Source of the DNA: an uncultured Lachnospiraceae bacterium
GTDB lineage: Bacteria; Bacillota; Clostridia; Lachnospirales; Lachnospiraceae
Length of the DNA stretch: 64,000 nucleotides
Assembly: GCA_947630695.1 (NCBI GenBank)
Contig: CANRIM010000002.1
Location: 1,271-65,270 of the forward strand
Direction of reading: 5' to 3'
Shown here: piece after piece, positions 23,880 to 39,828 of the stretch
Numbering within the stretch: the first letter of the stretch is position 1
Layout: each line of letters opens with the position of its first letter
Position numbers and translations under genes: made by a program
The notes under the pieces: model-generated
Databases searched by the model: none
What the model was told of the DNA's origin: nothing
The model's input: only the letters and a program-made list of their open reading frames with translations

Positions 23880-24902
23880 ATGGAAACTAAAGAACACAAA
23901 AGCGCCTGCCTGCGAACAGCCGCATACTGCCGGGTCAGCACGCAAAGCGATCTGCAGGACGGATCCTTTGAAACGCAGCGGGAATATTATCTGCGCTATA
24001 TTGAAGAACAGCCTTCCATGATTCTGGCAGGTCTGTACGCCGACCACGGCAAAAGCGGCCGGTCCATCGCAAACCGACCTGCATTTCAGCAAATGCTGCA
24101 GGACTGCAGAGACGGAAAAATCGACCTGATCCTGACAAAATCCATTTCCCGCTTTGCCCGCAATATGGCCGAATGCATTTCCGTGATCCGCGAACTGAAA
24201 GCACTGCATATCGGCATCTTCTTTGAACGGGAAGGCATCGACACCATGACCCGGTCCAGCGAACTGCTGCTGAGCATACTGGCGGCCATTGCACAGGAAG
24301 AAAGCGACAGCCTGCGGAAGAATCTGCAGTGGAGCAGACAGCGGCATTATGAGATGGGACAGCCCTGGGAAGCTGCCAGCTATGGGTATCGTTCCTGCGG
24401 AAAATCCCATGTCTGGAAAATCGAGCCCCGGGAAGCCTGCCGGGTACGCACAGCCTTTTATCTGGCCGGTATATGCCGACCCTACCGGGAAATATGCGCA
24501 GCCCTAAATCAAATAGAAGCAAACGAAAAGAGCGGCAAACATTGGAATCACAATCCCGTCATTCATTTGCTTTCTAATTGCGTTTATACCGGCAATTATC
24601 TGACCAACAAAGAATGTACCTATGTGAATGAAAGCGGCATCCGGCGCGGAAAAAACACAGGGCAGGTAGACCAATTTTATATCGAAGGACATCACGAGCC
24701 GCTGATCAGCAGTCCATTATTTGACCGGGTACAGGAACTGCTGCGGCGGCATCTTCTTTTTTCACAGCGCACACGCTTTTCTGACGATGACCGGAGATTC
24801 ATGCAGACCAGCATACGGCTGACCGAAGAAGAACGAAAAACATGGTCATCCGATCTGCCCGCGTTTGCGCTTTTCAGAGAAAGGAAGGAAACATGGAAAT
24901 AG
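23880..24902 (+). CDS. Serine recombinase (resolvase catalytic domain plus recombinase domain; no zinc ribbon visible)
   Basis: AAYCRVSTQSDLQDGSFETQ catalytic Ser motif and LILTKSISRFARN. It is only 340 aa and has no Cys pairs in the C-terminus. Confidence 0.85.
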   Translation: METKEHKSACLRTAAYCRVSTQSDLQDGSFETQREYYLRYIEEQPSMILAGLYADHGKSGRSIANRPAFQQMLQDCRDGKIDLILTKSISRFARNMAECISVIRELKALHIGIFFEREGIDTMTRSSELLLSILAAIAQEESDSLRKNLQWSRQRHYEMGQPWEAASYGYRSCGKSHVWKIEPREACRVRTAFYLAGICRPYREICAALNQIEANEKSGKHWNHNPVIHLLSNCVYTGNYLTNKECTYVNESGIRRGKNTGQVDQFYIEGHHEPLISSPLFDRVQELLRRHLLFSQRTRFSDDDRRFMQTSIRLTEEERKTWSSDLPAFALFRERKETWK

Positions 24903-26368
24903 AAAAGATACTTGTAGAGCATACGGGGGCCCCGGAGACAACTGTCGCCGGAAAGCAAAGAAGGGTCGCCGCCTACTGCCGGGTCTCCACCAGCAAGGAT
25001 GCGCAGGCCGGCAGCTTCGAACTCCAGAAAAACGTATATCTGCAGAAAATCACCGCGCACCCGGACTGGGTATTTGCCGGAATCTATGCCGACGAAGGCG
25101 TCACCGGCACCAATACCAAATACCGCACAGGCTTTCAGCAAATGCTGGCAGACTGCGAAGCCGGGAAAATCGATTACATTATTACCAAATCCATTTCCCG
25201 TTTTGCCAGAAATACGCTGGAATGTCTTTCTTACATACGGAAACTGCAGAGCATGGGTGTGCAGCTGATTTTTGAAAAGGAAAATATCGATACCGGCGAA
25301 CCGTTTTCCGAAATGCTGCTGACAGTTCTGGCTGCATTCGCGCAGGAGGAAAGCCGGTCTCTCTCGGAAAATCTCAAATGGGGCATCCGGAAAAGATATC
25401 AGAAAGGCATCGACCGCTGGACCCGCATTTACGGTTACACCCAGACGGAGGAAGGCAGTTACCGCGTGGTGCCGGAGGAGGCAGATACGGTGCGGCAAAT
25501 CTTTTTACTCTATGAACAGGGACAGAGCATGTCGGAAATCGTTGCATTTCTGCATCAGCATCAGATTCCCAGCCCTGCCGGGAAAAAAGACTGGAGCGCT
25601 TCCAGTGTGCTGCATATTCTGCGAAATGAAAAATACACCGGCGACATTCTGCTGCAGAAGACTTATACGGCAGATCACATCTCCCACCGGACAGTCAAAA
25701 ACAACTGTACGCTGGTTCCGGCCTATTATCTGACAGACCATCATACGCCGCTGATCAGTCACGAACAGTTTGCCATGGTGGAAAAAATCCGAAAGCTCCG
25801 CTGTCCGGGCGGCAGCGACGGCAACAGCACGGGAAATCCCGTACAATATCCTTTCGATACGCTGCTTCGCTGTCCCTACTGCGGCGCTGTCCTGCGCCAG
25901 CGCCACATACCGGTACAGCAGCCGGGCCGCGGCTGGCTCTGTGAAGGCAGTCCCAAGTCCTGCGGCGGCTTTCTGATCCGATCCCATTTCGTTGAGCAGG
26001 CGGTACTGACCGCATACCATACCTTTCCGAAGGAACAACTGGCCCCGGCTGATTCCGGTCATGCAGCAGAGGCCGAACACATGCGTGCCTTTTTGTCCGC
26101 CCATCCGCGCCTTTCGCGGGTGGACTATTACTGGCTGTCCCGGCTTGTAGATTCCATTACCTTCGGCCGGCATATAGCGCAGCCGCAAAATGGTACGGCT
26201 TGCGACCGCACCCTGTATGTCCACTGGAAATGCGGCGTGACCAGCTGCGTGCCCACCGGCATTGAGAAAGAAAAAGACCTGCCGTCTTATGTTCTGAAAC
26301 GTTACAGAGACTGGCAAGTCAGAAATCGGAGGAAAAATGAAAATCACACGGATTGCCCGAACCCGTGA
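24893..26368 (+). CDS. Large serine recombinase
   Basis: AAYCRVSTSKDAQAGSFELQ, YIITKSISRFARN, and a zinc ribbon (CPYCGAVL...CEGSPKSCG). I prefer the ATG at 24893, preceded by GGAAGGA, over the track start at 24842. It overlaps the upstream recombinase by 10 nt. Confidence 0.85.
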   Translation: MEIEKILVEHTGAPETTVAGKQRRVAAYCRVSTSKDAQAGSFELQKNVYLQKITAHPDWVFAGIYADEGVTGTNTKYRTGFQQMLADCEAGKIDYIITKSISRFARNTLECLSYIRKLQSMGVQLIFEKENIDTGEPFSEMLLTVLAAFAQEESRSLSENLKWGIRKRYQKGIDRWTRIYGYTQTEEGSYRVVPEEADTVRQIFLLYEQGQSMSEIVAFLHQHQIPSPAGKKDWSASSVLHILRNEKYTGDILLQKTYTADHISHRTVKNNCTLVPAYYLTDHHTPLISHEQFAMVEKIRKLRCPGGSDGNSTGNPVQYPFDTLLRCPYCGAVLRQRHIPVQQPGRGWLCEGSPKSCGGFLIRSHFVEQAVLTAYHTFPKEQLAPADSGHAAEAEHMRAFLSAHPRLSRVDYYWLSRLVDSITFGRHIAQPQNGTACDRTLYVHWKCGVTSCVPTGIEKEKDLPSYVLKRYRDWQVRNRRKNENHTDCPNP

Positions 26369-27548
26369 TCAAAGGAAAAAACGGGTGGCGGCTTACTGCC
26401 GCGTATCCACCGGCCTGTCGCCCCAGGAAGAAAGCTTCGACCTGCAGAAAGCATATTATACATCCTGTATCCGCCGCAATCCGGACTGGGAATTTGCCGG
26501 TATTTATGCCGATGAACGCAGTGCCTTAAACACCAGACAAAGACCCGGATTTATGCAAATGATCCGCGACGCCCTTGCCGGGCGCATCGATTTGATTCTG
26601 GTCAAGTCCATTTCCCGTTTTTCAAGAAATCTGGTGGACTGTGAAAACTACGCCCGGCTTTTACAGATGAGTGGTGTGGAAATCTATTTTGAAAAAGAAC
26701 GGCTCCGCAGCTTCGATCCTTCCGGCCGGCTGATCTTCTCTCTGCTGGCCGCCATAGCCCAGGATGAAAGCTACAGTATTTCCGAAAATGTCAAATGGAG
26801 CTATACCCAGCGATTTCGCCGCGGACAGTACAATCTGGGGAACAACCGGATCTTAGGCTACGACAGCGTAGGCGGCACCCTCATTCCAAACGCCCGGGCA
26901 TGGATCGTTAAATGTATCTTTGATTTGTTTCTGAAAGGCTGCACTTATCGTCAGATCGCCCGCCAGGTCGCGCAGATGGGCGGCTTCGGACTCCGCAGCA
27001 AAAAAGAGCTGTCCGCTTCCGGTGTATATGCGATTCTGAAAAATGAAACCTATGTGGGAGATAAGCTGCTGCAAAAACAGGCGCCGGTGGATTTTCTAAC
27101 CAAACGGCCCGATCCCCATGCAGCATACGAAAGCCGTTATCTGCGTCACGATCACCCGCCCATCATTTCCCGCGGCCAATGGGAAGCGGTGCAAAGAATT
27201 TTAAAAGACCGGCAGAAGGATGCCCGTGCGGGAATCGTCCAGCGCAGCCGGAACTGCCATGCGCTCTATGGGAAACTGTTCTGCGCCTGCTGCGGTGCGC
27301 CTTACACGCGAAGGACCCGGACCGCCGCAAAAGATCCGGCCTGCAAAGTGTGGATCTGCGCCCAGCGCCGCAAAGGAAACCGCGGCAACGGATGCAGAAA
27401 TCCCGGCATCCGGGAATCCGAACTCCTTGCAAAACTGGGACTTTCCCACGACGCCTCCGAAACGGCCATTGCGGAACAACTGCGCTGTATCGCCCGCATC
27501 GAGGTTGACGGCAAAGTGCTGCGCGTCATTGCTGTAAAAGGGGAATAA
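26337..27548 (+). CDS. Large serine recombinase
   Basis: AAYCRVSTGLSPQEESFDLQ, LILVKSISRFSRN, and a Cys-rich region (CACCGAPY...CKVWICAQ). A GGAGG RBS precedes it. It overlaps the upstream gene by 32 nt. Confidence 0.85.
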   Translation: MKITRIARTRDQRKKRVAAYCRVSTGLSPQEESFDLQKAYYTSCIRRNPDWEFAGIYADERSALNTRQRPGFMQMIRDALAGRIDLILVKSISRFSRNLVDCENYARLLQMSGVEIYFEKERLRSFDPSGRLIFSLLAAIAQDESYSISENVKWSYTQRFRRGQYNLGNNRILGYDSVGGTLIPNARAWIVKCIFDLFLKGCTYRQIARQVAQMGGFGLRSKKELSASGVYAILKNETYVGDKLLQKQAPVDFLTKRPDPHAAYESRYLRHDHPPIISRGQWEAVQRILKDRQKDARAGIVQRSRNCHALYGKLFCACCGAPYTRRTRTAAKDPACKVWICAQRRKGNRGNGCRNPGIRESELLAKLGLSHDASETAIAEQLRCIARIEVDGKVLRVIAVKGE

Positions 27549-27565
27549 ATGCGCCAAAAGCGAAG

Positions 27566-27642
27566 GTGCAAATTATAAGCCGAAAACAGTATAAAAAAGT
27601 GCAAATAATATTAAAATTATATTGCAAAAAGGTGCAATTTAT
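27566..27642. repeat. Three copies of GTGCAA(A/T)T(T/A)AT at exact 33-bp spacing
   Basis: GTGCAAATTAT at 27566, GTGCAAATAAT at 27599 and GTGCAATTTAT at 27632. A partial TTGCAAAAA lies at 27622. Confidence 0.85.
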
Positions 27643-27650
27643 TTTATAAT
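27622..27650 (+). promoter_or_regulatory. Near-consensus sigma-A-type promoter of the ATPase-res-abi-mod operon
   Basis: TTGCAA (27622-27627), a 17-nt spacer, then TATAAT (27645-27650). AAGGAGG at 27666-27672 precedes the ATG at 27678. Confidence 0.55.
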
Positions 27651-27677
27651 TCATTTATCTGCTGTAAGGAGGTGTCT

Positions 27678-29039
27678 ATGGAACGGAATGCTTTACAAGA
27701 TCTGATTGAATGGAATATCAACAGACGAAAAAAACCATTAATTGTATGGGGCGCAAGACAGGTCGGAAAAACTTATCTTGTAAAAAATATTTTTGCTGAG
27801 AACTATTACAAGGATCATTACATCTATGTCGATTGCAAAATTGAAGATGAAATTCGTGCGTTTTGTTCCGATACCGCCAATGCGCAAAAAATCATTGAAT
27901 ATATCTCCTTACGCAAGGGAAAACAGATAAATGAAAAAACGCTGCTCATCTTTGATGAGGTACAGGAATGCCCAAATATCATATCCTCTCTAAAATACTT
28001 TTGCCAGGATTACAGGCAAATTCCCGTGATTGCAACAGGCTCGATGGTGCGGATAAAACTTCAGCGAGAAACGCATAAAAGAGGCGTAAAGGACAACAAC
28101 AAATTTCTTTTTCCCGTAGGAAAAATTAATCAGCTGACGGTTTACCCGATGACCTTTGATGAGTTTTTGCTGAACAGCAACAAAATGCTTTATGATGCCC
28201 TTAAAGAAGCATATATGGACAGGCATCCGCTGGACAGTCAAATACATGAACTGGCAATGGAACAGATATATAAATATTTGCTGGTAGGCGGCATGCCCGA
28301 AGCGGTTGATACCTTTATTGAGTCAGGTAATTTTCTTGAATCAAGAGATATTCTCAAGACACTGTATGACAATTATCTTTCCGATATGGATTTATATCAG
28401 GCAAGTCAGGAAGCAGTTTTACGGTCTCACACCTTGTTTCAAAATATCTATAAACAACTTAACCGGGAATCCCGAAACTTTTCTCCCGGACTCATTGAAG
28501 AAAAAAGCAAAACGAGAGATTTTGCAACCTCGATCCAGTGGCTTACAATGGCGCATGTTGTCAATCAGTCCTTCCAGTTGAAAGAACACATCACAATGCC
28601 GCTTATACCGGATAATGAAAGTAATTTTCGTTTGTTTCTCGGAGATATCGGAATGTTCTCCTACCAAAGCGGAATCAATGCAGCTTCATTCATATCGAGT
28701 GAGAGGGAAAACACTCTGTCTGGCATTTTCTTTGAAAACTTTGTAGCAAATGAGCTGATTGCAAAAGGTCATAAACTATTCTACTGGCGAGGAAAAGCAT
28801 CTGCCGAACTGGAATTTATCATTGAATCGGATAACAAACTCTATCCGATCGATGTAAAAAAAGGCAAAGGGACACTCAACTCCCTTGAGAAATTCGCAAA
28901 TCATAACAAATTTGCATGTGCCATTAAGGTTTCCAAAAACAATTACGGCTATCATCCGGAGCAAAAGCTGCTTACTCTGCCTTTTTATTTTATTTCTTTT
29001 GCAGCAGCCGATCTTGCGAATGGTACAATGAAAATTTAA
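27678..29039 (+). CDS. AAA-type ATPase with a DUF4143-like C-terminal domain
   Basis: Walker A VWGARQVGKTYL and Walker B LLIFDEVQ. The ~450-aa size and layout match the common AAA_14/DUF4143 'ATP-binding protein' family. I prefer the ATG at 27678 over the GTG at 27672. Confidence 0.65.
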   Translation: MERNALQDLIEWNINRRKKPLIVWGARQVGKTYLVKNIFAENYYKDHYIYVDCKIEDEIRAFCSDTANAQKIIEYISLRKGKQINEKTLLIFDEVQECPNIISSLKYFCQDYRQIPVIATGSMVRIKLQRETHKRGVKDNNKFLFPVGKINQLTVYPMTFDEFLLNSNKMLYDALKEAYMDRHPLDSQIHELAMEQIYKYLLVGGMPEAVDTFIESGNFLESRDILKTLYDNYLSDMDLYQASQEAVLRSHTLFQNIYKQLNRESRNFSPGLIEEKSKTRDFATSIQWLTMAHVVNQSFQLKEHITMPLIPDNESNFRLFLGDIGMFSYQSGINAASFISSERENTLSGIFFENFVANELIAKGHKLFYWRGKASAELEFIIESDNKLYPIDVKKGKGTLNSLEKFANHNKFACAIKVSKNNYGYHPEQKLLTLPFYFISFAAADLANGTMKI

Positions 29040-29073
29040 ATTTTATAAGAATTGCAATTTATGGAGGCACCGT

Positions 29074-31944
29074 ATGTTCTATAAAATGATAGAAAACAAG
29101 TGCAAAGAGTGGTATACTTCTTCGCAATGTACAGTCCGAAATATAATTGAATATATAGAGAAAACGGGACAAATGCGAGATGCCCAGATTGAGGCTATCA
29201 AGGTTTATCTGTTTCTTAAAATTGGCTGCGAATGCAAGCCACTGGAGGTATTGTTCGAAAACGGTTGCTTCAACTCTATTGATTTAGATGGCATAGAGTT
29301 ATCTACGGCAACGCGCAAATACTTAAAGGACAATACAGCGGCAGCCGCATTGTTCGAATATTCTCGATTAACTAATAATACCGGCGAACAGGTTTCTGAA
29401 AAACTTGAAAAGCATATTAAGAAAGATCTGTCAAATATTGACTATGACAGCTTCTTTCGGAATGCATTTTATGGCATTTCCTATACGGATTATCTGTTTA
29501 GCTTACCAATGGGTGCAGGAAAGACGTATTTGATGGCGGCATTCATCTATCTTGATTTATATTTTGCCTATAATGAACCAACAAACCCTGCATTTGCACA
29601 TAATTTTATTATCTTTGCTCCATCCGGACTAAAATCTTCCGTTGTTCCAAGTCTTAAAACAATACAGAATTTTAATCCTGCCTGGGTTATCCCGGAGCCT
29701 GCAGCAACGGACATAAAGCGTATGATTTCCTTTGAAGTGCTTGATCAGGGAAAGACCGCAAAAAAATCAAACAAAACTAAAAATCCAAATGTCCAGAAGA
29801 TTGCAAATCACCAGCCACTTTCTGAGTTGTTTGGTTTAGTAGCTGTTACAAACGCTGAAAAAGTAATTCTTGACCGTATTCAGGAGAAACAAGGTCAAAT
29901 TCATATGTTTGAAGAGAGTGATGATGAAAAAGACAGACAGGCCAATGAACTGCGTAACCTTATCGGCAAATTACCATCGCTCTCAATTTTCATTGACGAA
30001 GTACATCATGCTGTCAGTGACGAAATAAAACTCCGTGCCGTTGTTACAAAATGGGTGCAGAATAATACCATTAACTCCGTTATTGGTTTTTCAGGTACAC
30101 CTTATCTTGAAAAGTTGGAAAAAATTAAGGTGGCAGACTCCCTTTCTGTAGGAACAGCTGAGATTACGAATATTGTATATTACTATCCCCTGATTAACGG
30201 TGTGGGGAACTTCTTGAAGTGTCCCGTTGTTAAAATTGCTGATATTGCCAACAGCAGTTTAATTATTGAACAAGGCGTCCGGGAATTTCTTGATACATAT
30301 AAAGATACTGTCTATGCAGGCGGATTGACTGCTAAACTCGGTATTTACTGCGGTACAATCGAAAAATTAGAAGAAGTTGTTTATCCTTTGGTAGCCCATA
30401 TTGTTGCAGAGTATGGTCTCGGCAAAAACACGATTCTTAAATTTCATAAGGGCAATAAGCAATATAAAATGCCTGCTGACAGCCAAATGCAATTTGATAT
30501 TTTAGATACCTCTGTTTCCCAAATTCGCATTGTCCTTCTGGTGCAGATCGGTAAAGAGGGCTGGGATTGCCGCAGCCTTACAGGTATTATCCTTTCCCAG
30601 GAAGGAGACTGTCCAACGAATATGGTCTTACAAACTTCTTGCCGCTGTCTGCGTCAGGTTGTGAAATACAGCCCAGAAACAGCGCTCATTTATCTAAACG
30701 AAAGCAACGCAGATAAATTAAATATGCAGCTTAAAAGGCAGCATCACATAACGCTCAAAGAGTTTTCATCTGCCGACAACAGCAAAACTCCCCTGAAACG
30801 TTACGATCGCACAACATATTTGAAGCTGCCAAAAGTCGATTTCTTTCAGCTTAAAATTAATTATGATACACTCACGATTGACAAAGCCGACCCTGCAAGA
30901 TATATTGCGGCTTCGACCAATAATGCCCGTCTTGCAGACAGTATTATCAAAACCACTGACCTTTCAATGAACGAAAGTAAAACAACTATCCGTATTGACG
31001 ACATGGAATATGGTAACGAACCGACGACTTTCCTCTCGTGGATTTATGGTATTATGAAAGGCGGCTTCGGCTCACCCTCTGTCGATGATCTGATGAAATT
31101 CGAAGATTCTCTTAAATCCGTCTATAAAATAATCACTTACAAAAAAGGTGAGACGTATTACTACAGTTCAAAATACAATCGAAAGTTAGTTGACGCCAAT
31201 ATTCGCAAAGCTTTCTGTGATAAGCAAGACTTTACCACAGTTGAAGATCTGATACCTGAATCAGCCAATCTTTTGAAAATTGCAAACTTTACCTCTGAAG
31301 TTTATACCGACAAGCCCCAGGATTATTATCCTTCGCAAAACGTGGTAGAAAACATCATCAAAGATGATAATGGAAAACTGAAGATTGATCCTAAAATTGA
31401 AATGACTATTCATCTACTTGAGGAAACGGGTAACACTGCAATAGCTGCAGACTTGCGAACGCAAACATCTTCTCACAAAAATAAAGACCGATCGTTCCAT
31501 TATCTGCCTTATCGCACAGACAGTAGTTTTGAAAAAACATTTTTAAAAGAAATCCTGTCTTTTGACGAAATCGAAAAGCTTGGATTGGAAGTTTATTATA
31601 ACGGAGATCGAGACATGACTGAATTCAAAATCAAGTGTTATCGGCGAGACAACGGAAAATGGAACTATATTGGTATCTATACTCCAGACTTTCTAATTCT
31701 CCGACGAAAAGATGGAGTGATCCACAATGTGATTATTGTGGAAACGAAAGGCAGCATCTACGCAAATGACACGTCTTTCAAAGATAAGAAAACCTTTATG
31801 GAAACGGAATTCTTAACGCAGAACAACAAAATCTTTGGCTATGAACGTTTTGACTATTTATATTTGGAGGACACATTGTCAGTGAGTGAACGAATTATGA
31901 TGATACATAAGAAACTCAAAAAAATATTTGAGGAGGAATTATAA
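29074..31944 (+). CDS. Type III restriction Res-like SF2 helicase fused to a C-terminal PD-(D/E)xK-like nuclease
   Basis: 956 aa. Helicase motifs: LPMGAGKTY (motif I), IFIDEVHH (motif II), GFSGTPY (motif III), GKEGWDCRSL (motif V) and QTSCRCLRQ (motif VI-like). The C-terminus has IYTPDFLILRR...VIIVETKG, a nuclease-core pattern. Confidence 0.7.
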   Translation: MFYKMIENKCKEWYTSSQCTVRNIIEYIEKTGQMRDAQIEAIKVYLFLKIGCECKPLEVLFENGCFNSIDLDGIELSTATRKYLKDNTAAAALFEYSRLTNNTGEQVSEKLEKHIKKDLSNIDYDSFFRNAFYGISYTDYLFSLPMGAGKTYLMAAFIYLDLYFAYNEPTNPAFAHNFIIFAPSGLKSSVVPSLKTIQNFNPAWVIPEPAATDIKRMISFEVLDQGKTAKKSNKTKNPNVQKIANHQPLSELFGLVAVTNAEKVILDRIQEKQGQIHMFEESDDEKDRQANELRNLIGKLPSLSIFIDEVHHAVSDEIKLRAVVTKWVQNNTINSVIGFSGTPYLEKLEKIKVADSLSVGTAEITNIVYYYPLINGVGNFLKCPVVKIADIANSSLIIEQGVREFLDTYKDTVYAGGLTAKLGIYCGTIEKLEEVVYPLVAHIVAEYGLGKNTILKFHKGNKQYKMPADSQMQFDILDTSVSQIRIVLLVQIGKEGWDCRSLTGIILSQEGDCPTNMVLQTSCRCLRQVVKYSPETALIYLNESNADKLNMQLKRQHHITLKEFSSADNSKTPLKRYDRTTYLKLPKVDFFQLKINYDTLTIDKADPARYIAASTNNARLADSIIKTTDLSMNESKTTIRIDDMEYGNEPTTFLSWIYGIMKGGFGSPSVDDLMKFEDSLKSVYKIITYKKGETYYYSSKYNRKLVDANIRKAFCDKQDFTTVEDLIPESANLLKIANFTSEVYTDKPQDYYPSQNVVENIIKDDNGKLKIDPKIEMTIHLLEETGNTAIAADLRTQTSSHKNKDRSFHYLPYRTDSSFEKTFLKEILSFDEIEKLGLEVYYNGDRDMTEFKIKCYRRDNGKWNYIGIYTPDFLILRRKDGVIHNVIIVETKGSIYANDTSFKDKKTFMETEFLTQNNKIFGYERFDYLYLEDTLSVSERIMMIHKKLKKIFEEEL

Positions 31945-32738
31945 TGAACGAAAGCAGAAATTCTTTATTGCCTGATGTAATTGAACCGATTTCCGATGCG
32001 ATTCAACAATCTTTTCCCGAAACCGCCAAGCAAACTGACGGAGTATTGTCCACCGTGGTCGGCTTTTTTAACAATGTTGTATTATATCCTATTAAAAAAG
32101 CCAATTTAACATTTAAATACAATTTAGAGGCATTTGAAAATGATTTAAAAGAAAAGACTAAATGTATCCCTCCTGAGAATTTACAAATTCCTCCAACAAT
32201 GATTGCCGGTCCTACTTTAGAGGCTTTAAAATATACATATGACGAAAAAGAACTACGCGAAATGTACGAAAATTTGTTAGTTTCCGCTATGGATACAAGA
32301 ACTGTAATCCAAGCGTTGCCATCTTTCGTTGATGCTATAAAACAGATGAGTCCTTTAGACGCTAAAGTCTTACAGAAATTTGTTGAATCAAGTCAACTTG
32401 CTTGTGCTGAAATTAAGTTTTCAATTAAAAATATAAGTAAAGTATATTCAAATGCTATGCCTACATATTTTATAAAGGAATTAGCATCTTTATCAGATCC
32501 ATTTAATATTTCTACATCTATAACCAATTTATTAAGATTAGGTGTTTTAAATATATTTGACGGGCAGATAGATGGATACGATTATAACTCATTTAAAGAT
32601 CATCCGTATGTACAGTCCCGGAGTACTTTATACAAATCTTATGGTAGACCATTTAAGATTAAAATTAATGAAAAAGTACTACTTGTTAATGATTACGGCA
32701 AATGCTTTATTAAAGTATGTTTGGGAAAGGAGATATAA
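31944..32738 (+). CDS. Abi-alpha / DUF4393-like protein (tentative family assignment)
   Basis: 264 aa. IPPTMIAGPTLEALKYTYDEKELREMYENLLVSAMD...FVDAIKQMSPLDAKVL resembles the conserved core I recall for the Abi_alpha (DUF4393) family. A strong GAGGAGG RBS precedes it, and its ATG shares one nt with the res TAA stop. Confidence 0.5.
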   Translation: MNESRNSLLPDVIEPISDAIQQSFPETAKQTDGVLSTVVGFFNNVVLYPIKKANLTFKYNLEAFENDLKEKTKCIPPENLQIPPTMIAGPTLEALKYTYDEKELREMYENLLVSAMDTRTVIQALPSFVDAIKQMSPLDAKVLQKFVESSQLACAEIKFSIKNISKVYSNAMPTYFIKELASLSDPFNISTSITNLLRLGVLNIFDGQIDGYDYNSFKDHPYVQSRSTLYKSYGRPFKIKINEKVLLVNDYGKCFIKVCLGKEI

Positions 32739-32741
32739 TCT

Positions 32742-34586
32742 ATGCCAATAAAATATGTACCGTTTACACCCGAACCGATTGAAGGGCAGGCTGTACTCGG
32801 AAACTTTAACAGAATATTGAAATACAAAGGTGCTGATGACGTTTCAAAGACGTTCCAACGCGGTATGCCACTTTATGAAATGGAAAAGCAGGAAACCGTA
32901 GGAGAAAATGCAGACGGTAATATGGTTATCCGTGGCGAATGCGTTTCTGCCTGCGCGTATTTAAAAGAAAAAGGCATTCAGGTCGACCTTGTGTATATCG
33001 ACCCACCATTTGCCAGTGGTGCGGATTACGCAAAGAAGGTTTATATCCGCCGCAACCCGAAAGTGGCGGAAGCCATTGCTCAGGCTGAACAGGAGCTTGA
33101 TATTGATGATCTGAAGGCCTTTGAAGAAGAAATGTACGGTGACGTTTGGGACAAAGAAAAGTACCTGAACTGGATGTACGAAAACCTTATGGCCATCAAG
33201 TCCGTTATGAATGAAACGGCATCCATTTATGTTCATTTGGATTGGCACATTGTACATTATGTAAAAATTTTGCTTGACGAAATTTTCGGAGAGGAAAATT
33301 TTAGAAATGAAATTATTTGGTGTTATACAGCTGTATCAAACGTCGGATTTGATTTTCCTAAAAAACATGATACTATTTGCCGTTTTTCAAAAAGTGAAAA
33401 TTATATTTTTAACAAAGATGAGATAAGAATACCATATGCAGAAGGGAGTCTTGACAGAGCAAACCGTAATGTAATAGGGAAGGGAGGAATGGATTTTGAG
33501 ACAATTGTACTTAATGAAAGCGGAAAAGTACCTGAAGATTGGTGGATAGATATACAACGAGCTGCACGATACCCGGGAGAAAATGTAGATTATACCACAC
33601 AAAAATCAGAAAAACTACTGGAAAGAATCATTAAAGCATCTTCAAACAAAGATATGCTCATAGCCGACTTTTTCGGAGGCAGTGGTGTCACTGCTGCCGT
33701 TGCCGCAAAGCTCGGACGCCGCTTTATCCATTGCGACATCGGACTCAACTCCATTCAAACCACCCGCGACAGACTAGTCTCAAATAGCGCAGAATTTGAC
33801 ATTCTGGAGATTAAAGACGGCGTACAGCTTTATCGTAACCCCGTTCAAACAATGGATAAAATTAAATCATTGATTCCCGGTCTGAAAAACGAGGATTCTC
33901 TCGATTCCTTTTGGGAAGGCGCTGTCTCCGACAGCAAGCTTGGGACAGTTCCTGTTTATGTGCCGAATCTGATGGATAGTGCTTCTAAGCTGCTCGACAA
34001 AGTGATGATGACCCGCATTATTCATCAGGCAATACCCGACCTTAGCAACAATATAAAAAAGGTAATCATTTATTACATAGACATTATAGACCAAGATGAA
34101 CTCATGCAATTTATCAGAAAAGACGACAGCACAACAATCGAAATAGAGCTGCGCGACCTGAAAGAGATTCTTGACGATATTATCATTGAGGATTATGCAG
34201 AATTTCATACAAAGAAAAACCATGGAGACTTGTTTGAGGGATACACTGTTTTTATTGATAAATTTATGAGCGATCGTGTACTTTCAAAGATATCCGAGTT
34301 TAATCAAAAGGCTTTCCTTAATTCTTCAGCAAGTAAACCATACAAACCCATTCAAATCAGTGAAGACGGTTTGGAACTTATTGAATTATTAAGCGTTGAC
34401 TGTACATACGATAATGGCAAGTGGCACTCCGACAATGAAATCAAAATTGACAAGAATGGCTATGTTATAGTGAATGGCGTTAAGACAAAAGAATTTTGGA
34501 ACGGACAAATTCGCTGTGAAAAGAAACCACTTCGTCTGAAAATTCGCAATATCTGCGGCGATGAAACGATATGGAAAGTAACCTGA
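32742..34586 (+). CDS. Beta-class N6-adenine/N4-cytosine DNA methyltransferase (Type III Mod-like) with a ~270-aa C-terminal extension
   Basis: Motif IV VDLVYIDPPFASG comes before motif I ADFFGGSGVTAAVAAKLGRRFIHCDI, the N6_N4_MTase order. The C-terminal third has no motif I recognise. Confidence 0.75.
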   Translation: MPIKYVPFTPEPIEGQAVLGNFNRILKYKGADDVSKTFQRGMPLYEMEKQETVGENADGNMVIRGECVSACAYLKEKGIQVDLVYIDPPFASGADYAKKVYIRRNPKVAEAIAQAEQELDIDDLKAFEEEMYGDVWDKEKYLNWMYENLMAIKSVMNETASIYVHLDWHIVHYVKILLDEIFGEENFRNEIIWCYTAVSNVGFDFPKKHDTICRFSKSENYIFNKDEIRIPYAEGSLDRANRNVIGKGGMDFETIVLNESGKVPEDWWIDIQRAARYPGENVDYTTQKSEKLLERIIKASSNKDMLIADFFGGSGVTAAVAAKLGRRFIHCDIGLNSIQTTRDRLVSNSAEFDILEIKDGVQLYRNPVQTMDKIKSLIPGLKNEDSLDSFWEGAVSDSKLGTVPVYVPNLMDSASKLLDKVMMTRIIHQAIPDLSNNIKKVIIYYIDIIDQDELMQFIRKDDSTTIEIELRDLKEILDDIIIEDYAEFHTKKNHGDLFEGYTVFIDKFMSDRVLSKISEFNQKAFLNSSASKPYKPIQISEDGLELIELLSVDCTYDNGKWHSDNEIKIDKNGYVIVNGVKTKEFWNGQIRCEKKPLRLKIRNICGDETIWKVT

Positions 34587-34637
34587 TTGATGTCACAAAT
34601 ACCATGCCTTCAAAGCTCGCTTTATATGCCGATAACG

Positions 34638-34677
34638 AAAACAGGTATCGACCCGCTCAGCCGATACCTGTTTTTCA
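34638..34677. terminator. Bidirectional intrinsic terminator between mod and the flavodiiron gene
   Basis: Stem AAAACAGGTATCG/CGATACCTGTTTT with an 11-nt loop. It is flanked by a T-run on the plus strand and TTTTCG on the minus strand. Confidence 0.7.
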
Positions 34678-34767
34678 TTTTGCCATTTTCACGGTTTGTA
34701 TTGCACGACTTATGAGCATCCGGCAGTATCGGGGAAACGATTCATATGTCATGTTCTGTTTGAAAAT

Positions 34768-36558
34768 TTATCCAATAGGCTCAAAATCCTGCGCGCCATG
34801 CTTGCACAGCGGACAGATGAAGTCCTCCGGCAGCGTATCGCCTTCGTAGACATAACCGCAGACCTTGCAGACAAAGCCTTTCTTGCCTTCCGTATCCGGT
34901 TTCGGCTTGACATTGTTCTGATAATAGGTATAGGTCATGGTGTCGAATTTCGAAAGCACTCTGGCTTCGGTAATGCTGCAGATGAACATACCGTGGCTGC
35001 CCAGATCGATATACTGCTCCACCTTCAGTGACATGAAAGCGTTGATATAGCGGGGCAGGAAACGCAGTCCGTTGTCGGAACGCAGCTCCTCATAATCCAC
35101 GAATTTATCCGTGTTGATACCGCTGCGGAAGCCGAAATCTTCAAATACCTTAAAGGGTGCATCCACGGAAATGCAGTTGACGTTCATGATGCCCGTCTGT
35201 TTGATGGTGTGGTGTGAGTAATTCTTCTTATTAATAGTCACTGCCACACGATTCGGGGAATCCGTCACCTGTGCCACGGAATTGACGATCAGGCCGTTGT
35301 CCTTCTTGCCGTCGCTGGAAGTTACCACATACAGACCATAGCCGATTCTGAACAAAGCGGTCAGATCATTTTTATTTGCTGTATCTTCCTTTCTGGAAAG
35401 ATAGTCCTTGCACAGCTCATCGGAAAGCGCGTCAATCTGCGCAATGCTGTCTTCGTTTAACGCCGACAGAATCCGGACCGTCTGATCCGCAAAAGTGATC
35501 TTCTTGCTGTTGGCAAACATCTGCTTCATGACTTTTGCTGCCTGGGGCGCCCAGCTTCCGTTTTCCATGAAGGCCACATAGCGGTTCTGGAAATTGTGCT
35601 CTACCAGATGCTCAATGAATGTCTTCATAAAGGGGAAGACCTCGGCGTTATAGGTGGTGGAGGCCAGCACCAGTTTGCCGTAACGGAAGGCGTCTTCCAC
35701 TGCTTCCGCCATGTCGCAGCGGGCCAGATCGTTGACCACTACCTTCGGGCAGCCCTTGGCTTTCAGCTTGTCAGCCAAAAGATCCACGGCCTTTTTGGTA
35801 TGTCCGTATACAGAAGTATAGGCAATCACAATGCCGTCGCTTTCCACCCCGTAGGAAGACCAGATATTATAAAGGTTCAGATAATATCCCAGATTTTCCG
35901 TCAGAATCGGTCCGTGCAGCGGACAGATCTTTTCGATTTCCAGGGAAGCGGCCTTCTTTAACAGCGCCTGCACCTGTGCGCCGTATTTGCCGACAATGCC
36001 GATATAGTAGCGGCGGGCTTCGCAGGCCCAGTCCTCATCTGCGTCCAGCGCACCGAACTTTCCGAAGCCGTCCGCGGAAAACAGGACTTTATCCAGCGAA
36101 TCGTAGGTAACGATAACCTCCGGCCAGTGTACCATCGGTGCCGTCACGAAAGTCAGTGTATGCGCGCCCAGACTTAAGGTATCGCCCTCGCCTACCACAA
36201 TATTTCTTCCCTCGTAATCCGTACCGAAGAAATGCTGCATCATGGTAAATGCCTTGGCAGAGGAAACGATCTTTGCCTCCGGATAAGTCTGCATAAACTG
36301 ATCGATATTTGCGGAATGATCCGGCTCCATATGCTGCACGATCAGATAATCCGGCGTCCTGCCATTCATCGCATTCTGCAGATTGTCCAGCCATGCATGT
36401 TTAAATCTGGCGTCAACCGTGTCCATAACCGCGATCTTGTCATCCAGAATCACATAGGAATTGTATGCCATGCCATTGGGCACCACATACTGGCCTTCAA
36501 ACAGGTCGATCTCGTGATCATTGACGCCAACATATTTGATAGTTTTCGTAATATCCAT
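34768..36558 (-). CDS. Multidomain flavodiiron protein: metallo-beta-lactamase-like diiron, flavodoxin, flavin-reductase-like and rubredoxin domains
   Basis: VQHMEPDHS diiron motif, a flavodoxin-like segment VIAYTSVYGHTKKA, a flavin reductase-like segment LYVVTSSDGKKDNGLIVNS, and a C-terminal rubredoxin CKVCGYVYEG...CPLCKHG. Confidence 0.75.
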   Translation of the reverse strand: MDITKTIKYVGVNDHEIDLFEGQYVVPNGMAYNSYVILDDKIAVMDTVDARFKHAWLDNLQNAMNGRTPDYLIVQHMEPDHSANIDQFMQTYPEAKIVSSAKAFTMMQHFFGTDYEGRNIVVGEGDTLSLGAHTLTFVTAPMVHWPEVIVTYDSLDKVLFSADGFGKFGALDADEDWACEARRYYIGIVGKYGAQVQALLKKAASLEIEKICPLHGPILTENLGYYLNLYNIWSSYGVESDGIVIAYTSVYGHTKKAVDLLADKLKAKGCPKVVVNDLARCDMAEAVEDAFRYGKLVLASTTYNAEVFPFMKTFIEHLVEHNFQNRYVAFMENGSWAPQAAKVMKQMFANSKKITFADQTVRILSALNEDSIAQIDALSDELCKDYLSRKEDTANKNDLTALFRIGYGLYVVTSSDGKKDNGLIVNSVAQVTDSPNRVAVTINKKNYSHHTIKQTGIMNVNCISVDAPFKVFEDFGFRSGINTDKFVDYEELRSDNGLRFLPRYINAFMSLKVEQYIDLGSHGMFICSITEARVLSKFDTMTYTYYQNNVKPKPDTEGKKGFVCKVCGYVYEGDTLPEDFICPLCKHGAQDFEPIG

Positions 36559-36660
36559 TACTCATACTCCTTTGTCTGAAATCTCTGTTCCCTATTCTAG
36601 CGCAATTTTCCAAAAGATGCAATGGGTGTTTCGTATCTGTTCTTCAGAAATGTAAAAGCT

Positions 36661-36698
36661 AAAAATGCTGCAGCCCCTCAGGATTGCAGCATTTTTTT
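36661..36698 (-). terminator. Intrinsic terminator after the GGGtGRT gene (A5/T7 flanks, possibly bidirectional)
   Basis: AAAAA, then stem ATGCTGCA, a 12-nt loop, TGCAGCAT, then TTTTTTT. Confidence 0.65.
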
Positions 36699-36727
36699 AC
36701 TTTATAATTCTATTGAAAGGAAAATCT

Positions 36728-37738
36728 TCAGAACTTTCCTGCCGCAGCTGCTTCTTCTACCGCCACTGCACATGCTACGGTAGCGCCGACCATCGGGTTG
36801 TTGCCCATACCGATCAGGCCCATCATCTCTACATGCGCCGGAACTGAAGAGGATCCCGCGAACTGTGCATCCGAATGCATACGGCCCATGGTATCCGTCA
36901 TACCATAGGAAGCCGGACCTGCCGCCATGTTATCGGGATGCAGGGTACGGCCTGTGCCGCCGCCCGATGCAACGCTGAAATACTTCTTGCCCTGCTCGAT
37001 GCACTCCTTCTTGTAGGTTCCCGCCACCGGATGCTGGAATCTGGTTGGATTGGTGGAGTTGCCGGTGATGGAAACGTCCACGCCTTCCTTGTGCATGATG
37101 GCAACGCCTTCTCTGACATCATCCGCGCCATAGCAGTTGACTTTGGCTCGCAGCCCGTTGGAGTAGGATTTTCTGTAAACTTCTTTCACTTCGCCGCTGA
37201 AGTAATCCATTTCCGTCTCTACATAAGTAAAGCCGTTGATCCGGGAAATGATCTGTGCAGCGTCTTTGCCGAGGCCGTTTAAGATAACACGAAGGGGTTT
37301 CTTACGAACCTTGTTTGCCTTTTCCGCGATACCGATGGCGCCTTCTGCCGCTGCAAAAGACTCATGGCCTGCCAGAAATGCGAAGCACTCGGTGTCTTCT
37401 TCCAGCAGCATCTTGCCCAGATTGCCATGGCCCAGGCCAACCTTTCTCTGATCGGCAACGGAGCCCGGAATACAGAAAGCCTGCAGTCCTTCGCCGATGG
37501 CAGCCGAAGCATCCGCGGCCTTGCGGCAGTTCTTCTTGATTGCGATTGCACAGCCGACGATGTACGCCCAGCAGGCATTTTCAAAACAAATGGGCTGGAT
37601 TTTCTTCACGGTGTCGTAGATCTCCAGACCTGCGTCCTTCGTGATTTTCTCCGCCTCTTCGATCGATGCGATCCCGTAATTGGCAAGCACCGCATTGATC
37701 TGGTCGATTCTTCTTTCATATGATTCAAATAAAGCCAT
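36728..37738 (-). CDS. GGGtGRT-family protein (conserved, function unknown)
   Basis: 336 aa containing the eponymous SGGGTGRT motif (FSVASGGGTGRTLHP). Confidence 0.75.
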   Translation of the reverse strand: MALFESYERRIDQINAVLANYGIASIEEAEKITKDAGLEIYDTVKKIQPICFENACWAYIVGCAIAIKKNCRKAADASAAIGEGLQAFCIPGSVADQRKVGLGHGNLGKMLLEEDTECFAFLAGHESFAAAEGAIGIAEKANKVRKKPLRVILNGLGKDAAQIISRINGFTYVETEMDYFSGEVKEVYRKSYSNGLRAKVNCYGADDVREGVAIMHKEGVDVSITGNSTNPTRFQHPVAGTYKKECIEQGKKYFSVASGGGTGRTLHPDNMAAGPASYGMTDTMGRMHSDAQFAGSSSVPAHVEMMGLIGMGNNPMVGATVACAVAVEEAAAAGKF

Positions 37739-37813
37739 TGATTAATCCTCCATTCCGCCGTTGACAGGCGTTTTCTAAATATACATGTGAACTGGTTTTC
37801 AGGCGATCCCTCA

Positions 37814-38506
37814 TTATTCCTCTCTCGGATCAATGATCTTCACAGCGTCCGCAACGCGGCCGTACTGTCCTTTTGCCTTTTCCCATGCAGTATTCGGATC
37901 GTCGCCCTTCTTGATGAAATCCGTCATCTTTCCGAGGCTGACATACTGGTAACCGATGATCTCATCGTTTTCATCCAGCGCGATGCCTGTGACATAACCT
38001 TCCGCCATCTCCAGATAACGGGGGCCTTTCTTTAATGTACCATACATCGTACCCACCTGAGAACGAAGACCCTTGCCAAGATCCTCCAGACCTGCGCCTA
38101 CCGCCAGTCCGTTTTCGGAAAATGCGCTCTGGGTTCTGCCGTAAATGATCTGCAGCGCAAGTTCACGCATGGCCGTATTGATGGCGTCGCAGACCAGGTC
38201 GGTATTCATGGCTTCCAGCACGGTCTTTCCCGGAAGGATCTCACTCGCCATAGCAGCGGAATGGGTCATACCGGAACAGCCGATGGTTTCTACCAATGCT
38301 TCCTGAATAATACCGTCTTTTACATTCAGGGACAGCTTGCAGGCGCCCTGCTGCGGCGCGCACCAGCCGATTCCATGTGTAAAGCCGTTGATCTCTTTGA
38401 TTTCTTTCACCTTGGTCCATGCACCTTCCTGAGGGATGGGCGCAGGTTCATGCTTTGCACCTTTTGCTACGGTGCACATTTTTTCAACTTCCTGTGTATA
38501 AATCAT
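37814..38506 (-). CDS. NifU/IscU-like scaffold-domain protein with a C-terminal extension
   Basis: An N-terminal CKLSLNVKDGIIQEALVETIGCSGMTHSAAMASE region resembles the NifU N-terminal domain (Cys ligand contexts). It is paired with the GGGtGRT gene. Confidence 0.5.
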   Translation of the reverse strand: MIYTQEVEKMCTVAKGAKHEPAPIPQEGAWTKVKEIKEINGFTHGIGWCAPQQGACKLSLNVKDGIIQEALVETIGCSGMTHSAAMASEILPGKTVLEAMNTDLVCDAINTAMRELALQIIYGRTQSAFSENGLAVGAGLEDLGKGLRSQVGTMYGTLKKGPRYLEMAEGYVTGIALDENDEIIGYQYVSLGKMTDFIKKGDDPNTAWEKAKGQYGRVADAVKIIDPREE

Positions 38507-38586
38507 ATTGATACTCCTTTCGACTAATACTGCTTCTTATTTTCGCACATACCGGAAAAATAAACAAGTCCCAACGACAATTTTAT

Positions 38587-39828
38587 TTAAAGTCTTATGA
38601 TTTTTTCTCCGATGACATTCTCCAGTTCCACCTGTTTCATCGTCACCTGCTCCGTGTTTTTAAATACAAATCCGGCGGCGGACATGGGGTCGATGCCGGC
38701 CATCATCGCAGGAATCTCCGGCGCGGCGTCCTGCCGCATGGAAACAGTACAGTCTTCCATGGTAATGCCGCTGATCTTCTGCTCCGGCAGTCCCGCAAAG
38801 ATACCGGCGCAGGACCTGGCGTCCTCCACCTGCACATGGGAAATCACAATGTCGCTCAAAGAAGGCGTCCCTTCGTCCACCGGCGCCGGCGCAGGATCGG
38901 AAACCCAGGGTTCCCTCCCCAGCTTGCCACAGAAATAAAACATATTAAATACAAAGGGACACATGACATTTTTCATCCGGATCTGTTCAAAGCGGATATC
39001 GCTGACCACGCCGCCCCGTCTTCTGCGGGTTTTGTAGCGGATGCCCCGATCCGTGTCTTCAAAGACGCAGTTTCGCACCGTCACATGGGCAATGCCGCCG
39101 GAAGACTCGCTGCCCAGGACCACGCCGCCGTGGCCGTGTACCATATGGCAGTCCTCAATCAGAATATCCTCGCAGGATCTTAAAGTGTCGTTTTGCTCCA
39201 CCCCGGATTTGATGGCGATGCAGTCGTCTCCCACATCGATCTGGCAGCCCCTGATCAGTACGTTTCTGCAGCTGTCCGGATTGATGCCGTCGGTATTGGG
39301 ACTGTCCGCCGGATTTTTGATCTTAATGCCGATCACCCGCACCGAATCGCACCAGTAGGGATGTACGGTCCAGCAGGGGGAATCGATCAAAGTCACATCC
39401 TTGATCAAAACCTCGGAACAGGCTTCAAAATATAGCAGCCGGGGCCGCATGACGGAAAGTTCTCCGTCCCGCAGCGCCTTCCACCACTTCTGTCCATTGC
39501 CCCGGATGACGCCCTTTCCTTCCACGGATACGGACGCCTCGTCCTTTGCGTAAATAAACGGCTGGTACATATCGCAGAAAACGCCTTCAAAACTGCCGCG
39601 GATCACCGGATAGCGGGAAAAATCATCTATAAATGAAATCTCACTTCCCTTTTCCAGATACAGCGTCATATTGGACGTCAGGCATATGCCCGCGCATTTG
39701 TAAACTCCGGGCGTCACCCGCAAAGTGCCGCCCCCGGCCTCTTTCAGCTCCTCTACTGCCTTTTCGAAACATTCCGTCCAGTCGTCCTTGAAGACGTAAT
39801 TCCGATAATCCGTAATCTTTACATCCAT
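38587..39828 (-). CDS. Glycoside hydrolase family 28 (polygalacturonase-like)
   Basis: NTDGINPDSC, GDDCIAIKSG, HGHGGVVLGSE and RYKT, the canonical GH28 motifs. Confidence 0.85.
   Translation of the reverse strand: MDVKITDYRNYVFKDDWTECFEKAVEELKEAGGGTLRVTPGVYKCAGICLTSNMTLYLEKGSEISFIDDFSRYPVIRGSFEGVFCDMYQPFIYAKDEASVSVEGKGVIRGNGQKWWKALRDGELSVMRPRLLYFEACSEVLIKDVTLIDSPCWTVHPYWCDSVRVIGIKIKNPADSPNTDGINPDSCRNVLIRGCQIDVGDDCIAIKSGVEQNDTLRSCEDILIEDCHMVHGHGGVVLGSESSGGIAHVTVRNCVFEDTDRGIRYKTRRRRGGVVSDIRFEQIRMKNVMCPFVFNMFYFCGKLGREPWVSDPAPAPVDEGTPSLSDIVISHVQVEDARSCAGIFAGLPEQKISGITMEDCTVSMRQDAAPEIPAMMAGIDPMSAAGFVFKNTEQVTMKQVELENVIGEKIIRL

Follow-up and report, generated by a model that had tools for sequence, protein, structure and literature searches.

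A predicted Type III-like restriction-modification operon of a Lachnospiraceae bacterium carries an Abi_alpha gene in a variable slot between res and mod

An uncultured Lachnospiraceae bacterium (GenBank assembly GCA_947630695.1) carries on contig CANRIM010000002.1 a group of four closely spaced genes, which we analyzed within a stretch of 64,000 nucleotides (nt) of that contig (positions 1,271 to 65,270 of the forward strand, hereafter the window). An earlier note on this DNA had described an AAA ATPase gene followed by genes for a Res-like helicase-nuclease, an Abi_alpha-like protein and a methyltransferase, and had suggested that they form a composite restriction-modification (R-M) and abortive-infection system. 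The four open reading frames (ORFs), all on the + strand, do lie at the coordinates given there (27678-34586; Table 1), and the close packing, the junctions and the ribosome-binding sites could be confirmed from the sequence. A ribosome-binding site of the GGAGG type can be read ahead of each of the four starts. AAGGAGGTG is located 3 nt upstream of the ATG of the ATPase gene, a gap of 34 nt separates this gene from res, and a GGAGG stands 6 nt before the res ATG. The next junction is the sequence TAATG (31942-31946), in which the res TAA overlaps the abi ATG and which has GAGGAGG ahead of it; at the last one the 3 nt tct stand between the abi stop and the mod ATG, and AAGGAG occurs within the last abi codons. 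These junctions support the translational coupling of abi on both sides, to res and to mod, and we infer that the four genes are co-transcribed as one unit.

Table 1. Features of the four-gene locus in the window, and protein families encoded between res and mod in homologous loci
Feature	Position	Strand	Loci	Basis
Promoter-like site, TTGCAA-17 nt-TATAAT	27622..27650	+		Consensus match, 10/12
AAA_14 + DUF4143 ATPase, 453 amino acids (aa) from ATG	27678..29039	+		Pfam, PADLOC PDC-S01
Res, 956 aa, SF2 helicase-like ATPase with C-terminal PD-ExK nuclease core	29074..31944	+		ResIII, motifs, homologues
Abi_alpha (PF14337/DUF4393; PDC-S47), 264 aa	31944..32738	+		Pfam, PADLOC
Mod, 614 aa, predicted beta-class N6/N4 DNA methyltransferase with C-terminal extension	32742..34586	+		Pfam, PADLOC, PDB match
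Predicted intrinsic terminator: 14-bp stem, 11-nt loop, T-rich tail	34637..34690 (hairpin 34637-34675)	+		Folding
Slot: 68-aa protein, helical			16	No Pfam or PADLOC match
Slot: PDC-S32-like			15	PADLOC candidate
Slot: membrane protein, ~234 aa			9	No match; predicted membrane segments
Slot: DUF2513			7	Pfam
Slot: membrane protein, ~206 aa			6	No match; predicted membrane segments
Slot: PD-T7-3/DARNA			4	7.5e-124, R117x4H122 HEPN motif
Slot: Abi_alpha			2	L002 (public contig matching the window) and L026
Slot: AbiJ_NTD4 + DUF7014			2	Pfam
Slot: DUF5677			2	Pfam
Slot: Rx4H protein			2	No match; HEPN-like motif only
Slot: other families			1 each	Singletons

The signals expected to delimit such a unit, a near-consensus promoter before the genes and a strong terminator after them according to the earlier note, fared differently. 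The hairpin downstream of mod folds with -20.3 kcal/mol (z = -5.3), as well as none of 200 shuffled sequences did, and together with its T-rich tail makes a convincing predicted terminator, which faces a convergent flavodiiron gene. A consensus terminator scan of the region missed this hairpin because of the length of its loop. The upstream site is present and plausible as the promoter of the operon, but it is statistically not distinctive, since this AT-rich DNA contains many promoter-like sites (31, compared with 21.6 +/- 4.8 in shuffled sequences). The best sigma-70-like site of the region (TTGACA-17-TATATT, 11/12) is located inside res, at 30878-30906, about 1 kb 5′ of abi. It could act as a res-independent promoter of abi and mod, or it may be a chance match, given the poor conservation of Res at that place. 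An Rfam scan of 23-36 kb returned no match.

Profile hidden Markov model searches agreed with the domains that had been assigned to all four proteins from the letters alone, and the operon-like unit does join an R-M pair, a true Abi_alpha gene and a gene for a DUF4143 ATPase. Res matched the Pfam family ResIII at 1.4e-7 (32 bits against a cut-off of 22.5 bits), and its residues 856-919 gave weak matches to the TnsA-like (0.0074) and RE_endonuc (0.085) families. We assessed the conservation of its motifs in a family alignment of 14 sequences with 66-78% identity to the window protein. The G-GKT motif at residues 147-151 (A148 nearly invariant), DEVHH at 308-312, SGTP at 340-343 and the nuclease core, PD at 871-872 and ETK at 890-892, are all invariant. 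The Cys-containing motif VI, QTSCRCLRQ, which had been pointed out as unusual, is likewise a property of the family, with Q520, T521, C523, C525, L526, R527 and Q528 invariant and S522 and R524 nearly so. The family itself is large: clustered at 90% identity, the homologous proteins fall into more than 5,200 clusters, one of which occurs on hundreds of contigs.

Mod is more easily placed than its partner. It matched N6_N4_Mtase in Pfam at 1.7e-44, its best PADLOC match was MTase_III (7.3e-56), and it aligned with the Mod subunit of EcoP15I (4zcf_A) at 1.9e-14. Its DPPF motif IV, near residue 87, lies ahead of the FxGxG motif I (FFGGSG), near residue 310, and this order, motif IV before motif I, is the one of the beta class. 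The core of the locus is thus predicted to be a two-subunit Type III-like R-M system, in which the membership of Mod is supported and that of Res tentative. Between motifs IV and I, at residues ~200-260, the alignment to the window Mod breaks in the loci L001, L006, L035, L037, L048, L057 and L058, which is consistent with a swapped target-recognition region and differing specificities within the family.

We collected homologous loci with a Res scan limited to one genome per species, which gave 561 confirmed relatives. We kept the best 80 of at least 561 loci (65-83% identity) plus one Ruminococcus bromii locus, and 77 of these were informative for both genes. The two genes are adjoining and co-oriented in 77/77 loci, often with one to three genes between them, and res precedes mod in every one. 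The non-canonical order, which had been taken as special to the locus of the window, is therefore a trait of the family.

The junction between the two genes, by contrast with the core, is variable. Between the res stop and the mod start lie -11 to 2,425 nt; this distance is below 100 nt in 21 loci and amounts to 133-189 nt without an ORF in 2, so the slot is empty in 23 of the 77. The other 54 (70%) hold one to three ORFs, and all the substantial ones are on the same strand as their hosts. The slot ORFs belong to at least 15 unrelated families, at least 14 of them besides Abi_alpha, and even among loci whose Res is 80-83% identical to that of the window there are at least six slot states. The 264-aa Abi_alpha protein had been proposed as a functional third component of the system; with Abi_alpha in the slot of only 2 of the 77 loci, and the slot otherwise empty or taken by one of those other families, a role as a dedicated component is not supported.

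The genes in the slot, or cargo, are built into the operon in a uniform manner. A Shine-Dalgarno sequence of the GGAGG type is found in the last codons of every cargo gene, ahead of the conserved mod start ATGCCGATT, and the res stop often overlaps the cargo ATG, which indicates that the cargo is fully integrated into the translation of the operon. Predicted membrane segments occur in five slot families. Four of the singleton cargo genes were unmatched, three of them with predicted membrane segments, and examples of unmatched cargo are located at L001:9871-10077, L017:9871-10575, L031:8465-9085 and L027:4945-5787. By the logic of guilt by embedding, the unmatched slot families would be anti-phage candidates. 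One family with a known activity, PD-T7-3/DARNA, works alone and senses SSB-bound single-stranded DNA by itself (bioRxiv 10.64898/2026.02.22.705581).

We then considered the Abi_alpha gene of the window on its own. The protein matches Abi_alpha at 4.9e-45 (154.4 bits, with the cut-off at 29 bits; residues 58-259 aligned with positions 3-196 of the 196 of the model) and the PADLOC candidate PDC-S47 at 1e-47 (residues 1-260). Its absence from most of the homologous res/mod loci, and the variability of this position in them, are what the earlier note had named as evidence against its idea. A metagenome scan with an alignment of Abi_alpha homologues gave 49 loci, and 35 homologues were informative, having at least 45% identity and enough flanking DNA. 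A look-up of contigs that encode the Senimuribacter Abi_alpha returned no record. While 23 of the 35 lie in the res-mod slot of the R-M family of the window, 12 lie outside it. Copies outside the family (50-72% identity) adjoin a ParA gene, a Tn916-type integrase gene or two-component regulators, or follow a Type I hsdS gene, and the one beside ParA is the one 72% identical to the window protein. In a neighbor-joining tree, slot-borne and free copies interleave. Moreover, a Res with 82-83% identity may be accompanied by an Abi_alpha with only 78, 63, 55 or 52%, and this mismatch, together with the many slot states, implies that the cargo turns over much faster than the core. Abi_alpha thus has the attributes of embedded cargo: it lies on the same strand between host genes, its position is variable and its family also occurs un-embedded.

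The slot-borne copies are full length, without any extension or truncation specific to R-M loci. Homologues encoded in 78 phage records, with only 27-35% identity to the window protein, align with it over residues 8-263, so the conserved N-terminus of Abi_alpha is not an R-M-specific addition. An AlphaFold2 model of the protein reached a predicted local distance difference test score (pLDDT) of 70.7 and did not cover the 65 conserved residues at the N-terminus; its only matches were the uncharacterized PDB entry 3H35 and, weakly, winged-helix proteins and regulators. These fold matches are uninformative, and no mechanism can be read from the fold. The founder of the family, Abi-alpha (ef2833, 272 aa) of prophage 6 of Enterococcus faecalis V583, causes abortive infection and premature lysis when cloned alone (PMC6356687). 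The window protein is of similar size, belongs with it to the Pfam family PF14337/DUF4393, which it matches over its full length, and shares with it 3H35 as sole structural neighbor (PMC6356687). The founder lies in a prophage, however, and the window gene inside an R-M operon, and the abortive-infection phenotype, with premature lysis and a lower efficiency of centers of infection, is known for ef2833 only, the window copy being known by sequence.

The gene at the head of the operon shows the same independence. Its product matches AAA_14 (2.7e-24) and DUF4143 (8.3e-20) in Pfam, and PDC-S01 over its full length (1.5e-123; residues 1-442 against positions 3-432 of the 439 in the model); it matches no PADLOC family other than PDC-S01 and PDC-S27. 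PDC-S01 is very common and is a candidate defense family without experimental validation (PMC12988326). Across about 70 loci, the gene directly 5′ of res belongs to more than 50 families, and an AAA_14/DUF4143 gene stands there in four of them (L002, L007, L013 and L030), being absent from about 94%. Other genes in that position encode Fic/PDC-S04 (in 5 loci), DUF1016-YhcG/PDC-S02 (in 4), SLOG-domain (YpsA) proteins (in 4) and Mrr (in 1), and the downstream neighbors of res-mod include a PDC-S60-like protein, TIR/SpbK and AbiTii. Fic, DUF1016-YhcG, the SLOG-domain proteins, Mrr, TIR/SpbK and AbiTii count as established or candidate defenses made up of one gene. In L013, an ATPase 88% identical to that of the window accompanies a res-mod pair with an essentially empty slot, and in L082-L109 the slot is occupied by Abi_alpha while the ATPase is missing. 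Each accessory is therefore independent both of the other and of the core, and the suggestion that the ATPase might be a fourth component gives way to that of one neighbor among more than 50.

The locus resembles several known systems in part. The embedding of defense genes in Hma, BREX, DISARM and Type I R-M systems was described in 2024 (Payne et al., bioRxiv 10.1101/2024.01.29.577857), the PDC class being based on genes found nested in BREX, DISARM and Type I R-M (bioRxiv 10.1101/2024.01.29.577857), and as early as 2013 it was noted that R-M loci of every type may contain extra, co-expressed genes (Makarova et al., PMC3632139; PMC3710099). Like the window family, these systems carry nested accessory genes on the same strand, which are highly diverse and in many cases autonomous; slot occupancy in the window family (54/77, 70%) compares with the 62.7% reported for Hma (bioRxiv 10.1101/2024.01.29.577857), and PDC-S01, PDC-S32 and PDC-S47 of the window family match models of the PDC class. 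The published surveys concern Hma, BREX, DISARM and Type I R-M, whereas the host here is a Type III-like res-mod pair; having two genes, it offers one internal slot, from whose cargo mod obtains its ribosome-binding site.

With classical Type III systems (EcoP1I and EcoP15I, Mod2Res1) the window shares a beta-class N6_N4 Mod, co-oriented adjoining genes and, in Res, the SF2 motifs I, II, III and VI followed by a C-terminal PD-ExK core. The order of the genes is mod then res in the classical systems and res then mod in the window family. The window Res also differs from the classical one in its Cys-containing motif VI and in matching neither the REase_III models of PADLOC nor sequences in the PDB, and the window Mod in an extension of 270 aa after motif I. 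In the classical biochemistry, cleavage depends on ATP-triggered sliding and on two unmethylated sites in inverse orientation, and a single strand is methylated. Remote homologues of Res and Mod are found side by side on plasmids of Enterococcus, Vibrio, Nitrosomonas and others. The window Res is 25% identical to the plasmid Res over ~580 residues (2e-43) and the Mod is 35% identical (2e-63); the plasmid Res keeps the RCLR core of motif VI (QSTMRCLRS) and the PD...E-x-K core, and the remote Vibrio Res matches REase_III, at 1e-5 only. In the plasmid loci, unlike in the window family, the genes follow the order UvrD-like helicase, mod, res, with no internal slot in the two examples examined and no DUF4143 ATPase. 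These examples (L131 on E. faecium pXD5 and L132 on V. alginolyticus pVAS19) carry the UvrD-like helicase with or without a PD-(D/E)xK protein. Type III systems with an extra helicase gene 5′ of mod have been described (Murray et al., 2021; PMC8259958), and the plasmid layout resembles that subgroup, a likeness of layout only (PMC8259958).

We consider it likely that the window holds an R-M core with two independent, exchangeable accessory defense genes, which together would provide layered, mechanistically independent defense. The gene content, the variability of the slot and the autonomy of the cargo families elsewhere were observed directly. The R-M family is large and comes mostly from gut Clostridia, with res predicted to be always transcribed before mod, and it seems to offer slots for exchangeable accessory genes at the res-mod junction, just 5′ of res and 3′ of mod. 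In the bacterium, Mod would methylate the host sites, and the Res-Mod complex would cut unmethylated incoming DNA. Should a phage escape restriction, Abi-alpha would abort the infection on its own, its characterized relative being a cause of premature lysis, and the ATPase-nuclease would form a third, separate candidate defense. Embedding would allow the accessory genes to be expressed from the R-M promoter and to be transferred horizontally together with the R-M pair, and it may also protect the cargo from deletion, because loss of the middle of the res-mod operon risks the loss of mod.

Several points weigh against this reading. The activity of the four proteins in the host and their independent action are predicted from sequence, and tight coupling and the lack of a separate cargo promoter would also be expected of a physically integrated subunit. 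The term Type III-like, for a Res as divergent as this one, rests on its motifs, the ResIII match, the Type III-type Mod partner and the remote homologues. Res matched no PADLOC family at E <= 0.1, REase_III models included, and sequence searches of the PDB with the whole protein, the helicase part or the 14-sequence profile gave no usable match. An AlphaFold2 model of Res, for which 36 sequences with 77-83% identity were aligned, reached a pLDDT of 45 and was unusable for a fold search. Finally, the slot frequencies are estimates, since they come from the best 80 of at least 561 genome loci.

The strongest rival takes PrrC as its model. PrrC, which is encoded within the Type Ic EcoprrI locus, becomes active once the T4 protein Stp inhibits the enzyme (PMC12707154; PMC3710099); by analogy, Abi-alpha would be held latent by Res-Mod and released when a phage anti-restriction protein disables the enzyme. 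The operon would then be a system of two functionally coupled layers, and a guard triggered by blocked restriction had also been suggested in the earlier note. The two cases are alike in having an abortive-infection effector in the middle of an R-M operon, where it is co-expressed (as we take it to be in the window), and to the precedent of EcoprrI (PMC12707154; PMC3710099) can be added that the cargo in every case shares the strand of its two neighbors and is translationally coupled to them, and that the slot holds 23 of the 35 informative close homologues of Abi_alpha. Nevertheless, we regard such a guard as unlikely, because the cargo families are autonomous and promiscuous. The slot accepts at least 14 other unrelated families, the autonomous DARNA among them, and the E. 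faecalis Abi-alpha needs no R-M partner (PMC6356687). PrrC is found almost only within R-M loci, under the control of its R-M partner, whereas Abi_alpha and other cargo of the window family are also found free elsewhere, Abi_alpha homologues occurring in prophages and beside integrase or ParA genes. Relatives with 50-72% identity in non-R-M contexts, the interleaving of slot and free copies in the tree, the full-length slot-borne copies without R-M-specific changes and the uncoupling of Abi identity from Res identity all argue in the same direction, and PrrC and Abi_alpha have no sequence or fold relationship. A broader and still more doubtful idea sees in the res-mod junction a dedicated platform by which diverse abortive-infection effectors are coupled to the restriction enzyme's state. 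This could take the form of a generalized PrrC principle, with Res/Mod silencing the cargo until restriction is inhibited, or of cargo expression tuned by the translation of res. If it were true, the unannotated cargo, namely the 68-aa protein of 16 loci and the membrane proteins, would consist of new effectors or adaptors of that mechanism.

That the middle gene might instead be a passenger with no part in defense, or might regulate the R-M system or help to assemble it, for example by timing mod against res, seems very unlikely to us. The Abi_alpha model resembles only 3H35 and weak winged-helix regulators, and a res-first order creates a need to secure the expression of mod; but the match to a family with an experimental Abi phenotype (PMC6356687) is strong and full length, 23 loci do without any slot gene, and the slot genes are mutually unrelated, which makes a common regulatory role implausible. 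An obligate machine in which the ATPase, Res, Abi-alpha and Mod assemble or depend on one another might be expected from what looks like one transcription unit, with gaps of no more than 34 nt, one promoter-like site and one terminator. The combination occurs in 0/128 other loci examined, apart from L002, which matches the window itself; each accessory occurs without the other, and the core without either. We rejected this reading, which is extremely improbable, as contradicted by the co-occurrence data. Equally remote is a system of the Hma type, with the ATPase as a core subunit and Abi-alpha nested in the way published for Hma loci. On the surface, the gene content is that of a helicase, a methylase and an ATPase, and Hma systems carry embedded genes in 62.7% of cases (bioRxiv 10.1101/2024.01.29.577857). 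PADLOC holds Hma models, yet Res stayed unmatched and the ATPase found only its two PDC families; the ATPase is not conserved with the pair, being missing from some 94% of homologous res-mod loci, and Res has a conserved PD-ExK nuclease core. The Hma reading was rejected on this profile and co-occurrence evidence.

As for the surroundings of the operon, a public contig that matches the window belongs to a metagenome-assembled genome of a rabbit-gut Lachnospiraceae bacterium (CANRGZ010000003.1, L002), with 94.6-98.7% DNA identity. Directly 5′ of the operon, at 23880-27548, the window has three tandem genes for large serine recombinases with Resolvase and Recombinase domains, the third also with a Zn-ribbon. 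Over 26295-39079, identity to L002 is 94.6% across the third recombinase, 98.7% in the operon and 97% further right, with a break in colinearity of ~130 nt near 36.6 kb; the L002 contig ends 42 nt upstream of the third recombinase. The recombinase genes have a GC content of 52-53%, against ~38-40% for the R-M genes, and there is a GC step near 34.7 kb. This contrast and the step suggest an integrative island of ~11 kb that comprises the recombinases and the defense genes. A repeat search for the ends of such an island around 22.6-35.2 kb found only short, chance-level repeats. Serine recombinases are also located 5′ of res in L050 and L072. Further left, positions 1-23000 are occupied by a long biosynthetic cluster on the minus strand, with a GC content of ~40% against ~52% for the right half of the window. 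It encodes a DegT-type aminotransferase, an acetyl-CoA carboxylase carboxyltransferase, an AMP-binding enzyme, KAS III, an amino-acid permease and a polysaccharide-synthesis protein, and is probably a surface glycan or lipid locus.

The embedding of defense genes in R-M, BREX and Hma operons has already been published, and the locus of the window is a further example; in the literature that we searched, there was no description of the res-then-mod family or of its slot. What had been proposed as a four-part composite system would be replaced by an R-M pair with two exchangeable defense passengers, and guilt by embedding, as published for Hma, BREX, DISARM and Type I R-M, would come to include a Type III-like pair. 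As PADLOC is blind to Res, R-M systems of this family are probably under-counted as orphan methylases. The added value is modest. It consists of a very widespread R-M family of gut Clostridia with a well-defined internal slot, loaded in about 70% of loci, which may serve as a rich and well-delimited source of candidate anti-phage genes from gut anaerobes, among them the 68-aa protein, several membrane proteins, DUF2513, DUF5677 and the Rx4H protein.

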